A stretch of DNA of 64,000 nt, taken from the NCBI GenBank assembly GCA_027887005.1, contig JAPCJI010000008.1:2162-66161 (forward strand), read 5' to 3'. The DNA comes from Nitrososphaerota archaeon. Lineage in GTDB: Archaea; Thermoproteota; Nitrososphaeria; Nitrososphaerales; Gagatemarchaeaceae. A model generated the notes under the pieces. The model saw nothing but the letters and a program-made list of their open reading frames with translations, was not told the origin of the DNA and made no database searches. The position numbers and the translations under genes are program-made. Below are positions 5,246 to 44,419 of this stretch, piece by piece; the first letter of the stretch is position 1; every line of letters begins with the position of its first letter.

Positions 5246-5344
5246 GCGGGGGTACTCAAGCCTGGTCAACGAGGCGGGACTTAAGCGGTATCCTGAGAAA
5301 TCCCGTCCCTCAGGGGTTCGTGGGTTCGAATCCCACCCCCCGCA
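5246..5344 (+). tRNA. tRNA-Leu(UAA) with a ~14-nt intron at the canonical 37/38 position
   Basis: Hand fold:
- acceptor gcggggg/cccccgc
- anticodon stem cggga/tcccg with loop cttaag[cggtatcctgagaa]a
- long variable arm
- T-arm gtggg-ttcgaat-cccac. Confidence 0.8.
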
Positions 5345-24184: not shown

Positions 24185-24517
24185 GGAGCACACGAACGCA
24201 ATCGTAAGGCGTAAGGAAGTTTCAAGCGAGACTGCCACCAAGTCAGCGTTGAAATCCGAATTTGAGCAGGGAAGCGGAAAGGAAGGAGAAGTGAACCCGT
24301 AGGTTTGATGCCCAGGCCGGGACCTGAGCACCCATATGGGTGCCCTTTCGTTCTGCCAGATGCTTGGGCAGGCGACCACGATATGGCGGCAACATGATTG
24401 CATTCATACCAGGGTTGTGCGGTCGCCGCGCAGTTGAACTTGGGTTCAAATCCTAACGGGATCCCCCTTCATGCTCGCTTCATGTGAGGATGCGCTCTGT
24501 CTGACACTACGCTTCCC

Positions 24518-26491: not shown

Positions 26492-28513
26492 TTAGAACGT
26501 CGCTCTCAGCTTCTGCATTAATGCCTGGTATCTAGGATCATCTCTTGATTTGGCCAGAAGTGGACAATACATCACGTACGCATATCGAATTGTGTGTTGG
26601 TCAAGTGCCAGATTGGCATAAGTGAAGTATGAATCGAGGTCCCCGAGAGCGTGGTAGATGAAGGCGATGTCATTCAGGTTCGTGGCTCCAAGCCACTTCT
26701 TCTCAATTTCTTGAATTACATCTAGGGCTCCTTTTCTGTCACCCGTGTAGCCAGCTATGAAGCCTCTCATCCATGTGGCCCAGCGATGAGTGGGGTCCAA
26801 CCTTTCTACTTTCGAATGAAACTCCCTCGCCTTTTCGACGTCACCTTTGTAGAGGTAATATTCGGTCATCGCTCTGTATGTGCCAGCGGGGGCGACCAGC
26901 ACCGTCTTCTCCCAGTGCTGCAGAGCCTTGTTCTCCATCCCAAGGTAGAAGTAGAACTGTCCAAGTCGCTCTGCGTAGCGCGCCAATACCGGATCTAGTC
27001 TGTAGCAACTCTCCGCGGCACTGATCCCTTCTTCCTTTTCGCCTCTCGTCAGAAAGACGTTGGACAGGACAAAGTGAGCCTCCGCAAGACTAGGGTTCAA
27101 TTCGATCGCACGTCTGGCTTCAGTTTCGCACCCTTGAATATCATCCTCTTGGAAGTGTACCCTTGCTAGAGTGGCATGCGCTTCGGCCAGTTCTGGGTCA
27201 ATTTGTAGGGCCTTTCTAACCGAGATATCTGCCTTGGGCATGTCCTGTTCATATGGCTCGTAGTTGTCGGTAACAAGCTCTGTGTAGGCCCAGGCAATTC
27301 CAGCATGAGCTTTGGCAAAGGTAGGATCAAGAGTTATCGCTCTTTCAAGTAATCCCAATGCCTGCCTCAAGGAGGATTCCGTCCTTTCGCGGATGAGCTC
27401 TCGTCCTCTCAAATACAGGGTGTAGGCCTCCGTGTTCTCTGTCGGCCTTCTTTCAATAACCCGTTTCTCATCCTCAACAAGTCGGATCTTGAGTTCCCCT
27501 GCGACCTTCTCAGCGATTTCAGATTGGATGGCAAAAACATCTTCCAATTGCCTGTCGTAATTCTGGGCCCAAATGTGACCTTCAGTCGCAGTGTCGATGA
27601 GCTGGGCAGTAATCCTGACCCTGTTTCCCGCCTTCCTCACGCTCCCTTCTAGCATGGTGCCTACCTCCAACTCCTTTCCAATCTCCTTCACTTTCTTCGT
27701 CGTCCCCTTGTATCCCATAACCGAAGTCCTAGCGATGACGGTGAGCTGCCTCACGCCGGATATTGAAGTGATGAGTTCCTCGGTCACGCCATCGGCGAAG
27801 TACCCCTCCTCTGGATCGGAGCTCAGGTTGGTGAATGGGAGAATTGCGATACGCTTCTTGTCCAATACAACGCCCATGGATTCCGGCCTCTCCCAAGGGA
27901 ACACCACCCTGAAAACCTCCAAGGATTCTCCGACGTTTTTCAGTTCTTTCTTGCCGATGCTGAGAAGTTGAAAATCAGATTTGTTCTTTACGTGGTCGTA
28001 CACATGCTCTGAAATGCAGACTCCTCCCGGCGTAGCAAGAGGTTCTATTCTGGAGGCAATGTTGACCGCGTCCCCGTATACATCGTTCTGACTGTGTATT
28101 ACGTCCCCTAGGTGGACACCTATTCGGAGAAATATCTTCCTATCCACGGGGCGACTTGAGTTGAGCTCATGCAGAGACTCCTGTACGTCGAAGGCGCACC
28201 TGACTGCCTCAAGGGCGCTTTCGAACTCTATGAGGAAAGCGTCGCCGATGGTTTTGACCTCTCTCCCGCCATGCCTCAAGAGCACGGGCCTGACGAGGAT
28301 ACGCTGTTCTTCCAAGAGTTCCATCGCAACTGCTTCATTCTTCTGCGTGAGGGATGTGTAACCAACTATGTCGGTGAACATTATCGCGGCGAGCCTTCGT
28401 TCCCCTTCTGACACAGAAAACTCCAGTCGTTTGGCCGTACCACAGGTTAACTCTTTCGTAGAGACCCAGCAACATTGTGGATCACGACGACATGGTATGA
28501 TGCCCCTCTCCAC
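26492..28513 (-). CDS. class III adenylate/guanylate cyclase fused to a TolB-N-like linker module and TPR repeats
   Basis: Cyclase motifs AAIMFTDIVGYTSL, GDAFLIEF, RIGVHLGDV and GDAVNIASR. These are followed by IAILPFTNLSSDPEEGYFADGVTEELIT and then multiple TPR units. Start uncertain (GTG). Confidence 0.8.
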   Translation of the reverse strand: MERGIIPCRRDPQCCWVSTKELTCGTAKRLEFSVSEGERRLAAIMFTDIVGYTSLTQKNEAVAMELLEEQRILVRPVLLRHGGREVKTIGDAFLIEFESALEAVRCAFDVQESLHELNSSRPVDRKIFLRIGVHLGDVIHSQNDVYGDAVNIASRIEPLATPGGVCISEHVYDHVKNKSDFQLLSIGKKELKNVGESLEVFRVVFPWERPESMGVVLDKKRIAILPFTNLSSDPEEGYFADGVTEELITSISGVRQLTVIARTSVMGYKGTTKKVKEIGKELEVGTMLEGSVRKAGNRVRITAQLIDTATEGHIWAQNYDRQLEDVFAIQSEIAEKVAGELKIRLVEDEKRVIERRPTENTEAYTLYLRGRELIRERTESSLRQALGLLERAITLDPTFAKAHAGIAWAYTELVTDNYEPYEQDMPKADISVRKALQIDPELAEAHATLARVHFQEDDIQGCETEARRAIELNPSLAEAHFVLSNVFLTRGEKEEGISAAESCYRLDPVLARYAERLGQFYFYLGMENKALQHWEKTVLVAPAGTYRAMTEYYLYKGDVEKAREFHSKVERLDPTHRWATWMRGFIAGYTGDRKGALDVIQEIEKKWLGATNLNDIAFIYHALGDLDSYFTYANLALDQHTIRYAYVMYCPLLAKSRDDPRYQALMQKLRATF

Positions 28514-28548
28514 TCTTGCAGAATTGGGCCTGTTTCATGTGAAAGACG

Positions 28549-28660
28549 TGCCCCGGCCGGGATTCGAACCCGGGTCGCCGACTCGAAAGGCCAGCATACT
28601 CTCGGCCTGCTCGCACGGAGTTGACCGGGCTGTACGCGCAGCGCTCTATACTACCGGGGC
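28549..28660 (-). tRNA. tRNA-Glu(UUC) with ~37 nt of extra sequence in the D-loop (non-canonical intron or introns)
   Basis: Hand fold of the reverse complement:
- acceptor gccccgg/ccggggc
- anticodon arm ctggc-ctttcga-gtcgg
- T-arm ccggg-ttcgaat-cccgg
- D-stem gtat/gtat enclosing 48 nt instead of about 11. Confidence 0.75.
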
Positions 28661-28680
28661 TGAATCGCACCCTCTTTGCT

Positions 28681-29409
28681 TCAGCAATTAGAGCTTTCGC
28701 GGATGATTGGCCTCAGGAAGCACCATTCGCCAAGTCCAGCGAAGAACTCAGCCTGTTTCGCGTGGGAAGGAAGCAGGAGGGAACTGAAGTGGAGCATCCC
28801 TCCTTTGGGAAGGTAGGAGTTCCTCCCTCGTCTTTCACCCGTCGCCCTCAGCGTCGACGAAACGGCGTCGGGGTCGAGCGACGACTCATAGTATTGGCGT
28901 CGGCCGAGGACCCTGACTCTGCTTCCCTCGGTCGGGAAGTCGGTGATGAAGATGCAGCCTTCCTTCGAGGATCTGACGACCATCAAGACGACGTCCCGCT
29001 CATCGGGGGTGAGCCCGCACTCTCCCGCAGCCCGCAGATCGGCCCACAGGGGGGAGGATTCCATTCTGGTGGAGAACCTGACTGTGAGCGACCCCCCGGA
29101 CCTGCCTCCGCTGAAGTAGCGGGCCCTGAGTTGGTCTATTGCCAACCCCTCGCGTTCCATCTTCAGGAGGTCGGGGAGCGCAGGACCGAACGCGTCGCTC
29201 GGGTCTTCGCGCGACCAGCAGAGCCCTGCTGGGTCGACGTGGAGGACCGTGTCTCCTTTCCGCGCGACGAACACCCTCGACCCCCCTACGGTGTAGCCCT
29301 TGGTCCTGAGGCGGTCGGCGATGAACCGTGTCTGGGACTCGGCGAGCTTAGGCAGGGGCAGGTACCAGGTCTCGCCGAGTTTGATCACCCTCCAGGTGTA
29401 ACTGGACAA
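28681..29409 (-). CDS. hypothetical protein (242 aa)
   Basis: Balanced amino-acid composition. The opposite-strand 324-aa ORF is R/G/P-rich and overlaps the tRNA. TTG start. Confidence 0.45.
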   Translation of the reverse strand: MSSYTWRVIKLGETWYLPLPKLAESQTRFIADRLRTKGYTVGGSRVFVARKGDTVLHVDPAGLCWSREDPSDAFGPALPDLLKMEREGLAIDQLRARYFSGGRSGGSLTVRFSTRMESSPLWADLRAAGECGLTPDERDVVLMVVRSSKEGCIFITDFPTEGSRVRVLGRRQYYESSLDPDAVSSTLRATGERRGRNSYLPKGGMLHFSSLLLPSHAKQAEFFAGLGEWCFLRPIIRESSNC

Positions 29410-29518
29410 CCGCGCTTCATCTCAACGAAACATTATATAGAATATGAAAGGGTGAAAATTCGAGGTCTCAAGGTTGGATGGTCGCCGGGCTGTCTCGCTC
29501 GAAGCAATCGACGCACGG

Positions 29519-30331
29519 ATGAAATCGTACCGGGAAAGGGCGGACGGAGCGATGGCGACCGAGCTGGCGCTCTACAAGCATTCGAGGTTCCATGACCCGC
29601 TGGTGTACGCCGTGGAAGGGGGGAAGAGAGTCAGGCCCGTGATGCTAATGCTCTCCGCCGAGGCGCTCGGCTGCAAGGACGACTCCGTGCTGGGAGCGGC
29701 GGTCGCGGTCGAACTCCTGCACACAGAATCGATCATCCATGACGACATCATCGACGAGGAGCTCGCTAGGAGGGCGAAGATGACGTTCCACGTGAAATAT
29801 GGCTACAGCGCATCTCTGCTGACTGCAGACTTCGTCTTCTCCATGATCTTGGCCATCGCTGCCAGATACAGGGACAGGCGCGTAGCCGAAGAGCTGAGCA
29901 ACGCAGCCCTCCGCATGGCCGAAGGGGAGTACTCGGAACTGACGATAGACCCAAAGGTGTACAACCTTACATGGGACGAGTATCTGAAGATCATTTCGGA
30001 AAAGACGGCGGCTCTCTTCGAGACGTCAGCGAAGCTTGGAGCACTGGTCGCGGACGGGAATGAAAGGGAGGTCGCAGCGCTCGCTGCCTACGGCAGGAAC
30101 CTTGGTACGGCCTACCAGCTTCGGGACGACCTGTTGGACTGGAGGTCGCAGGACAAGATTGCCATAGGCCTGCTCAGGAATCATAGTGAGAGCGAAGTCG
30201 TGGGCAAGATGACAGCTCTGTCCCAGACCTATGTCGAAGAGGCAAAGCGGCAGCTGATGGTGCTGCCCAGGAGCAGTGCCACCGACTTCCTTGAACTTCT
30301 GACTGACTTCACGATACAGAGAAAGTACTGA
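29519..30331 (+). CDS. idsA: polyprenyl (geranylgeranyl) diphosphate synthase
   Basis: First aspartate-rich motif LLHTESIIHDDIID and second YQLRDDLLD. An upstream in-frame TTG at 29474 is also possible. Confidence 0.8.
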   Translation: MKSYRERADGAMATELALYKHSRFHDPLVYAVEGGKRVRPVMLMLSAEALGCKDDSVLGAAVAVELLHTESIIHDDIIDEELARRAKMTFHVKYGYSASLLTADFVFSMILAIAARYRDRRVAEELSNAALRMAEGEYSELTIDPKVYNLTWDEYLKIISEKTAALFETSAKLGALVADGNEREVAALAAYGRNLGTAYQLRDDLLDWRSQDKIAIGLLRNHSESEVVGKMTALSQTYVEEAKRQLMVLPRSSATDFLELLTDFTIQRKY

Positions 30332-44321: not shown

Positions 44322-44419
44322 GGCGCCGTAGCTCAGAAGCAGGTAGCTGCTGGGCAGCGTGGTAGAGCAGCAGGCTGTTAACCTGTTGGTCGTCGGTTCG
44401 AGTCCGACCGGCGCCGCCA
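44322..44419 (+). tRNA. tRNA-Asn(GUU) with a ~22-nt D-loop insertion and a genomically encoded CCA
   Basis: Hand fold:
- acceptor ggcgccg/cggcgcc
- D-stem gctc/gagc enclosing 30 nt (ag + aagcaggtagctgctgggcagc + gtggta)
- anticodon arm gcagg-ctgttaa-cctgt
- T-arm gtcgg-ttcgagt-ccgac
- discriminator g followed by cca. Confidence 0.75.

Follow-up and report, generated by a model that had tools for sequence, protein, structure and literature searches.

Two probable protein-spliced introns in the D-loop of a chromosomal tRNA-Glu(UUC) gene of a Nitrososphaerota archaeon

Introns outside the canonical site are common in the transfer RNA (tRNA) genes of Thaumarchaeota. In 11 thaumarchaeal genomes 107 non-canonical introns were counted, and two introns were present in 39 of 498 tRNAs, the figure for the Nitrososphaerales being 22 of 141 (PMC8450103, Suppl. 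Table S7). tRNAscan-SE 2.0 provides a dedicated thaumarchaeal model of the bulge-helix-bulge (BHB) motif at which such introns are cut (PMC8450103). The splicing endonuclease EndA of this group is an (alpha-beta)2 enzyme with an L1 specificity loop that permits cleavage of relaxed motifs (PMC4090602; PMC5829648). In the same isoacceptor, the pre-tRNA-Glu(UUC) of Methanopyrus kandleri carries a relaxed HBh' intron at position 20b/21 in the D-loop in addition to a canonical intron (Kaneta et al. 2018, PMC5829648). [quoted passage not shown] Up to three short non-canonical introns per tRNA, including introns in the D-arm, are known from Thermoproteales and Caldiarchaeum subterraneum (Sugahara et al.; PMC4090602, PMC3293823). 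Here we describe a tRNA-Glu(UUC) gene on contig JAPCJI010000008.1 of a Nitrososphaerota archaeon, located in a stretch of 64,000 nucleotides (nt) that was analysed as a whole and is referred to as the window. This gene very probably is a functional chromosomal tRNA gene whose D-loop is interrupted by two independent protein-spliced archaeal introns.

The locus resembles the multi-intron tRNAs of Nitrososphaerales and Nitrosopumilales (PMC8450103) in the phylum, in the short non-canonical BHB-type introns outside the anticodon loop, and in the number of two per gene, which is common there. With M. kandleri it shares the isoacceptor, the 20b/21 site of intron 2 and the relaxed motif. However, M. 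kandleri belongs to the Euryarchaeota and its second intron is a canonical one at 37/38 rather than a D-loop intron. Relaxed hBH/HBh' motifs as well as heterogeneity in intron presence and absence between related genomes are features in common with Thermoproteales and C. subterraneum. These organisms are all hyperthermophiles, whereas the metagenome-assembled genomes (MAGs) and metagenomes matched in our study appear to come from soil and peat; furthermore, in contrast to that comparison, no evidence of associated recombinases or of split or permuted genes was found here. No citable precedent was found for position 15/16, nor for two introns around an 8-nt micro-exon in one D-loop, in a multi-intron literature that was incompletely covered. 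Nevertheless, precedents exist for this kind of element, for the phylum and, within this isoacceptor, for one of the two sites.

An earlier note on this DNA, made from the letters alone, regarded non-canonical and multiple introns as known mainly from Thermoproteales and some other archaeal lineages, and D-loop positions as among the rarer ones. The host, however, is not a member of the Thermoproteales, and in Thaumarchaeota non-canonical introns as well as double introns are common (PMC8450103). The supposed rarity of D-loop sites needs qualification too, since 20b/21 in tRNA-Glu(UUC) has the experimentally studied precedent of M. kandleri (PMC5829648). Hence, the gene is less unusual than the earlier note implied. 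Interrupted tRNA genes of this sort are already well known in this archaeal group, and the present one is real but ordinary.

The gene comprises 112 nt and runs from window position 28660 to 28549 on the minus strand (Table 1). The coordinates of the earlier note were right. From 5' to 3' the gene reads GCCCCGG UA GUAU AG [AGCGCUGCGCGUACAG] CCCGGUCA [ACUCCGUGCGAGCAGGCCGAG] A GUAU G CUGGC CUUUCGA GUCGG CGAC CCGGG UUCGAAU CCCGG CCGGGGC A, with the introns set in outer square brackets; three exons and two introns are present and no CCA is encoded. All three exons are collinear within the 112 nt, so this is not a split or permuted tRNA gene. The acceptor stem is a perfect helix of 7 base pairs (bp), the anticodon loop is CUUUCGA with the anticodon UUC at 28587-28585, and a T-arm is present. 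The D-stem GUAU/GUAU encloses 48 nt; compared to the D-loop AGCCCGGUCAA of 11 nt this is an excess of 37 nt (16 + 21). The acceptor stem, the anticodon arm, the T-arm and the wide D-stem, as well as a D-loop core of normal appearance with about 16 and about 21 additional nt on its sides, had already been recognised in the earlier note and are borne out by the sequence.

Table 1. Features of the tRNA-Glu(UUC) gene and of its upstream region (window coordinates; intron boundaries are those of the proposed splice register)
Feature	Coordinates	Strand	Remarks
Exon 1, tRNA positions 1-15	28646..28660	-	GCCCCGGUAGUAUAG: acceptor 5' strand, U8 A9, D-stem 5' strand GUAU, A14 G15
Motif 1 central helix, exon strand GUAU (positions 10-13)	28648..28651	-	pairs with GUAC at 28632-28635
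Intron 1, 16 nt, position 15/16	28630..28645	-	AGCGCUGCGCGUACAG; sole register with 4/4 central pairs
Motif 1 central helix, intron strand GUAC	28632..28635	-	preceded by hairpin GCG-CUG-CGC (28636-28644), followed by segment AG|C
Micro-exon, 8 nt, positions 16-20b	28622..28629	-	CCCGGUCA, including G18 G19; read from the sequence
Motif 2 central helix, exon strand CGGU (D-loop positions 17a-20)	28624..28627	-	pairs with GCCG at 28603-28606
Intron 2, 21 nt, position 20b/21	28601..28621	-	ACUCCGUGCGAGCAGGCCGAG; register chosen by 4/4 pairing
Intron 2 hairpin CUC-CGUGC-GAG	28610-28620	-	upstream of the GCCG strand with spacer CAG between; local minimum-energy fold
Motif 2 central helix, intron strand GCCG	28603..28606	-	followed by segment AG|A
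Exon 3	28549..28600	-	A21, D-stem GUAU, G26, anticodon arm, 4-nt variable loop, T-arm, acceptor 3' strand, discriminator A
Promoter-like element (BRE/TATA-like)	28682..28697	-	CGAAAGCTCTAATTG; 22-37 nt upstream of tRNA-Glu
242-aa open reading frame	28681-29409	-	no Pfam match; ends 21 nt upstream of tRNA-Glu

Removal of both introns in silico results in the 75-nt tRNA-Glu GCCCCGGUAGUAUAGCCCGGUCAAGUAUGCUGGCCUUUCGAGUCGGCGACCCGGGUUCGAAUCCCGGCCGGGGCA, which folds into a cloverleaf with the anticodon UUC, G18 G19, the T-loop UUCGAAU and a 7-bp acceptor stem. The very same D-arm, GUAGUAUAGCCCGGUCAAGUAUGC, is found in the uninterrupted tRNA-Glu(UUC) gene of Thermogladius sp. (locus L028). As a check the earlier note had proposed ARAGORN, whose outcome depended on the form that was submitted: the unspliced locus yielded a truncated tRNA-Glu at 28548-28621, and the spliced sequence was called end to end as tRNA-Glu(ttc), positions 1-75. 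The Rfam tRNA model scored the unspliced gene with 20.3 bits against a gathering score of 29. The best low-stringency Rfam match at the locus, the small RNA (sRNA) SpF41, was rejected because it only reflects tRNA-like ends.

Splice registers were derived from a BHB rule with a 4-bp central helix and a splice site after nt 2 of the 3-nt segment located 3' of each helix strand. This agrees with the review definition, in which the first two anticodon bases lie in the central helix of a canonical intron (PMC4090602). The rule was checked on the tRNA-Leu(UAA) gene of the window at 5246-5344 (plus strand), where it recovered a canonical 14-nt intron at 5286-5299, position 37/38. The motif found there is strict (hBHBh'), with CUUA/UGAG as the central helix, the segments AGC and AAA, an inner helix of 2 bp and an outer helix of 7 bp. 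For each tRNA-Glu insert several cut positions preserve the mature sequence, but only one register each gives four of four central pairs; the other product-preserving registers, with just 0-2 of 4 pairs, were discarded. In the case of intron 2, for example, excision of CUCC...GAGA at 21/22 leads to the same product as excision at 20b/21. Intron 1 has AG|A and AG|C as its 3-nt segments, and intron 2 has CA|A and AG|A. In the window the inner hairpin of intron 1 is contiguous with 3 bp and properly closes the 5' bulge. A product-preserving central helix with four of four pairs was found in 2.3% of shuffled sequences for insert 1 and in 5.8% for insert 2, or about 1.3e-3 jointly, so the arrangement exceeds what chance would give. 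The search for a BHB motif at the junctions, which had been recommended in the earlier note, found one BHB-like motif per insert, in a register that yields a normal tRNA-Glu. Since motifs 1 and 2 are adjacent and do not overlap, both can form in one precursor, and the structure containing both evaluates to -39.2 kcal/mol.

From this anatomy we infer the following course of maturation. In the primary transcript each intron would pair 4 nt near its 3' end with 4 exon nt that sit 2 nt upstream of the 5' splice site, GUAU (10-13) with GUAC in intron 1 and CGGU (17a-20) with GCCG in intron 2. This pairing would yield the 4-bp central helix of a relaxed BHB motif of the HBh' kind, in which each splice site follows the second nt of the 3-nt segment beside the central helix. 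Both motifs would form simultaneously without overlap, EndA would cut both, and an RNA ligase would join the three exons. The GUAU/GUAU D-stem would then form, resulting in a normal 75-nt tRNA-Glu to which CCA would be added later.

Homologous genes were collected with degenerate patterns, which were run against 185,579 species-representative genomes and, in a second scan, against metagenome contigs. All counts given below refer to the matches listed, and those from metagenome contigs are lower bounds. At least 154 loci with at least 107 distinct sequences encode a tRNA-Glu of the same exon type and architecture, in Nitrososphaerota MAGs and in unlabelled metagenome contigs. Nearly all genome matches with this exon type belong to MAGs that bear the label Nitrososphaerales, Nitrososphaerota or Thaumarchaeota, with isolate names such as SPRUCE, SubAcS15, JOPF, MFD and SMAG. 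Together with the gene content of the window, which includes Topo VI A and B, A-type ATPase subunits, complex I and DnaK, these labels identify the host as a thaumarchaeon (Nitrososphaerota) and not as a member of the Thermoproteales. Five further loci (L013, L014, L015, L028, L030) are chance upstream matches to tRNA-Glu genes with uninterrupted D-loops and were used only as comparators.

The central helices are strongly conserved. In intron 2 all four pairs with CGGU are retained in 104 of 104 distinct homologues, in which the pairing strand varies between GUCG, AUCG, GCCG, ACCG and GCUG, each able to pair with CGGU. For intron 1 four of four pairs were found in 85 of 101 distinct homologues and three of four in the remaining 16, with the strand variants GUAC, GUAA, GUAU, AUAC, GUAG and GUGC. 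The inner helices change in sequence and retain pairing. There are 22 types of the intron 1 hairpin with 1-4 bp (at least 2 bp in 98 of 101 sequences), among which compensatory switches such as GUCC/GGGC, GCCC/GGGC, GUC/GAC, GCG/CGC and AC/GU were observed. Intron 2 shows 15 pairing types, a contiguous inner helix of 1-6 bp being present in 81 of 104 homologues (at least 2 bp in 78, a single pair in 3) and absent from a further 23 sequences; compensatory switches include ACC/GGU, GCC/GGU and ACUGA/UCAGU. The CUC/GAG hairpin is kept in 21 of 22 sequences of the window type. Pairs were also counted on two ungapped alignments. In the one with 42 sequences 97.7% of the cells in question are paired, and in the other, which comprises 22 sequences with the window among them, 99.4%, compared to 27-43% in a control in which the partners were slid by 1-3 columns. 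Within subtypes covariation is modest because their members are close relatives, and most of it is seen between subtypes.

Natural alleles separate the two inserts. Among the matches listed, intron 1 is exactly absent in 5 loci (L040, L088, L113, L119, L134) and intron 2 is exactly absent in 4 (L001, L006 and two loci with the L122 sequence). No intronless allele of this exon type was found among the 154 matches listed. Three MAGs contain two tRNA-Glu copies each (L005/L032, L022/L027, L020/L036), and every copy carries both introns. In the micro-exon the genome pattern required CCCGGNCAA and left the fourth-from-last base free. Every clade member has U there, and the flanking inserts vary. 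Exon parts left free by the patterns are invariant except for one C/U exchange that keeps pairing. Neither scan fixed acceptor bases 1-3, which are the same in every homologue listed; the genome scan also left free the remainder of the acceptor stem, the 3' strand of the D-stem, the anticodon stem and the variable loop. In the T-stem a compensatory change from CCGGG/CCCGG to GCGGG/CCCGC occurred. This pattern of variation indicates that the exons are under purifying selection.

The earlier note had left a choice between two short introns and one complex insertion. The first was upheld by the single-intron alleles, the constrained micro-exon and the separate BHB-like motif of each insert, and the second was not. 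A single 46-nt insertion, that is, one long intron between G15 and A21 with the D-loop-like CCCGGUCAA inside it by coincidence and the true D-loop arising in another way, would be conceivable a priori as one event, given that the inserts lie just 8-9 nt apart in one loop. Yet some alleles are short of exactly insert 1 and others of exactly insert 2, and both kinds keep CCCGGUCAA; each insert has its own conserved 4-bp helix; and the D-arm obtained by splicing out two introns is identical to that of an uninterrupted crenarchaeal tRNA-Glu, whereas removal of all 46 nt leaves a D-loop without G18 G19. We therefore regard a single insertion as scarcely credible. Self-splicing introns of group I or group II were also rejected, as the inserts measure only 16 and 21 nt and no Rfam intron match was obtained. 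Group I and group II introns possess a ribozyme core of hundreds of nucleotides.

It also has to be considered that the gene decays as a pseudogene disabled by the insertions and that another intact gene supplies tRNA-Glu(UUC). ARAGORN and Rfam indeed fail to recognise the full gene, and the visible part of the genome amounts to 64 kb, so that a second copy may exist elsewhere. However, the exons are invariant across loci whose flanking genes are about 70% identical and whose inserts vary, compensatory changes occurred in the intron helices and in the T-stem, and a promoter-like element upstream is conserved. Moreover, no intronless version of this exon type is present among the 154 matches listed, and in the three MAGs with two copies both introns interrupt all of them, which makes a pseudogene very improbable. 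Retention of the inserts, either in a mature tRNA with a hugely expanded D-loop or in an RNA with a function other than that of a tRNA, draws on the fact that splicing is here a prediction from sequence. Against this, a D-loop of 48 nt would disrupt the tertiary contacts of G18/G19 with the T-loop, the inserts keep exactly the features that the endonuclease needs for recognition and nothing else, either insert can be absent without a change in the exons, and in M. kandleri comparable introns are excised from the same site (PMC5829648). Retained inserts thus seem extremely unlikely.

Several observations weigh against the interpretation as two spliced introns. Neither motif is a strict hBHBh' motif, the substrate of alpha4 and alpha'2 EndA, in which outer helices of 2 bp or more close both bulges: in every homologue the outer helix on the exon side has 0 bp in intron 1 and 1 bp in intron 2. 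Both motifs are relaxed and HBh'-like. In the window type of intron 2 an offset of 3 nt lies between the hairpin CUC/GAG and the central helix, which places the 5' splice site in a 3x3 internal loop instead of a clean bulge. In the window itself C38 can pair with G54, resulting in a 5-bp helix and a 2x2 internal loop at this site; an alternative contiguous inner helix of 2 bp is possible for intron 2 in the window alone. Motif 1 taken alone has an energy of -3.1 kcal/mol compared to -4.4 kcal/mol for a competing helix. Globally, the precursor reaches its minimum energy (-50.1 kcal/mol, compared to -39.2 kcal/mol with both motifs formed) in a fold that breaks up the anticodon arm. Furthermore, the search patterns fixed large parts of exons 1-3, an ascertainment bias by which exon invariance in those parts is given by construction. 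Finally, a Pfam scan of 38 open reading frames (ORFs) of the window revealed no EndA. Relaxed motifs call for an EndA of the (alpha-beta)2 or epsilon2 kind with the specificity loop, and the heterotetramer expected in the earlier note is consistent with what has been published on Thaumarchaeota (PMC4090602; PMC5829648). These departures from the textbook motif do not overturn the interpretation as two spliced introns, yet they are its least secure part. Two alternative foldings were dismissed. The helix 19-22/29-32 that competes in intron 1 has a slight advantage in stability in the window, but homologues do not conserve it. Pairing between introns 1 and 2 as a source of the missing outer helices was rejected since, among homologues, variation in one intron is not accompanied by a corresponding change in the second, as judged by eye.

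We give little credence to a further-reaching proposal, according to which the window type of intron 2 serves as a 'loop-helix-loop' substrate and selection keeps both introns in these lineages. At the 3' site of intron 2 there is essentially no closing outer helix. If intron 2 of the window type were spliced efficiently, the known substrate range of the thaumarchaeal (alpha-beta)2 EndA would extend to 'loop-helix-loop' structures; alternatively, folding of a precursor with two adjacent motifs around an 8-nt micro-exon would be assisted or ordered. The presence of both introns in nearly all of the at least 154 loci and the lack of an intronless gene among the matches listed could mean that selection maintains the introns rather than that they are merely tolerated. 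If selected, they may, for example, protect the tRNA gene against integrating elements.

The locus reveals no new mechanism, and an intron-aware annotator should call the gene routinely. In contrast, default finders (ARAGORN, Rfam tRNA model) truncate or miss this tRNA-Glu as well as the neighbouring tRNA-Asn gene, and an annotation made without an archaeal intron-aware search would hence seem to lack tRNA-Glu(UUC). The family adds a well-sampled example of thaumarchaeal tRNA introns, with at least 107 sequence variants, natural alleles that lack one or the other intron, and two adjacent D-loop introns that soil lineages have kept over the long term. In addition, it provides a natural series of relaxed motifs that can be used to probe endonuclease specificity.

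Two further tRNA-Glu genes also contain inserts. The tRNA-Glu(UUC) of Candidatus Nezhaarchaeota WYZ-LMO8 (L002, 3497-3581) has a 27-nt insert at 15/16 with the same GUAC strand. In a tRNA-Glu of Caldarchaeales (L030, 1184-1284) the D-loop is uninterrupted, and an insert is located near the 5' strand of the anticodon stem. These sequences suggest that tRNA-Glu intron sites may have been reused or may be ancient across Thermoproteota.

Besides tRNA-Glu, the window contains tRNA genes for Asn and Leu, and with an intron in each of them all three tRNA genes of the window are interrupted. The tRNA-Asn(GUU) gene at 44322-44419 (plus strand) carries a 21-nt D-loop intron at 44337-44357, position 15/16. 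This is built like intron 1 of tRNA-Glu, with GUAU/GUAC replaced by GCUC (10-13)/GGGC, the segments AG|A and AG|C, and an inner helix of 5 bp. The spliced form has 77 nt with an encoded CCA; ARAGORN and Rfam mis-delimit the gene. The tRNA-Leu(UAA) at 5246-5344 is labelled tRNA-??? by ARAGORN. A T-arm motif scan of the window additionally found an orphan T-arm-like sequence UUGGG-UUCAAAU-CCUAA at 24443-24453 (plus strand) in the intergenic region 24404-24517. No recognisable acceptor, D-arm or anticodon arm lies nearby, and neither ARAGORN nor Rfam gave a call at this site. Chance (about 0.5 such matches would be expected in one window), the remnant of a tRNA or a piece of a gene that was heavily disrupted could account for it.

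The neighbourhood of the tRNA-Glu gene, consisting of the 242-aa (amino acid) ORF, a polyprenyl synthetase and A-ATPase subunits, is conserved. Flanking DNA of homologous loci is about 70% identical. The species representatives that were scanned do not include the genome from which the window comes, and the closest flanks reach about 70-76%. The 242-aa ORF was found in 110 related loci, beside the tRNA gene where this was checked, with best matches of about 45% amino-acid identity; those of the polyprenyl synthetase reach about 85%. A plus-strand ORF at 28621-29595, which overlaps the 242-aa ORF, probably is spurious. A comparison of 122 distinct upstream sequences shows conserved A/T-rich positions at -36..-34 and -29..-25, corresponding to an A-rich and a TATA-like block. 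As the promoter-like element overlaps the last codons of the conserved 242-aa ORF, this conservation is weak independent evidence for a promoter. Directly downstream of tRNA-Glu, at 26492-28513 on the minus strand, a 673-aa protein with an adenylate/guanylate cyclase catalytic domain and TPR repeats is encoded. It was found in only 12 related loci and is 76% identical to the copy in L144 and about 40-43% identical to those in most other loci.

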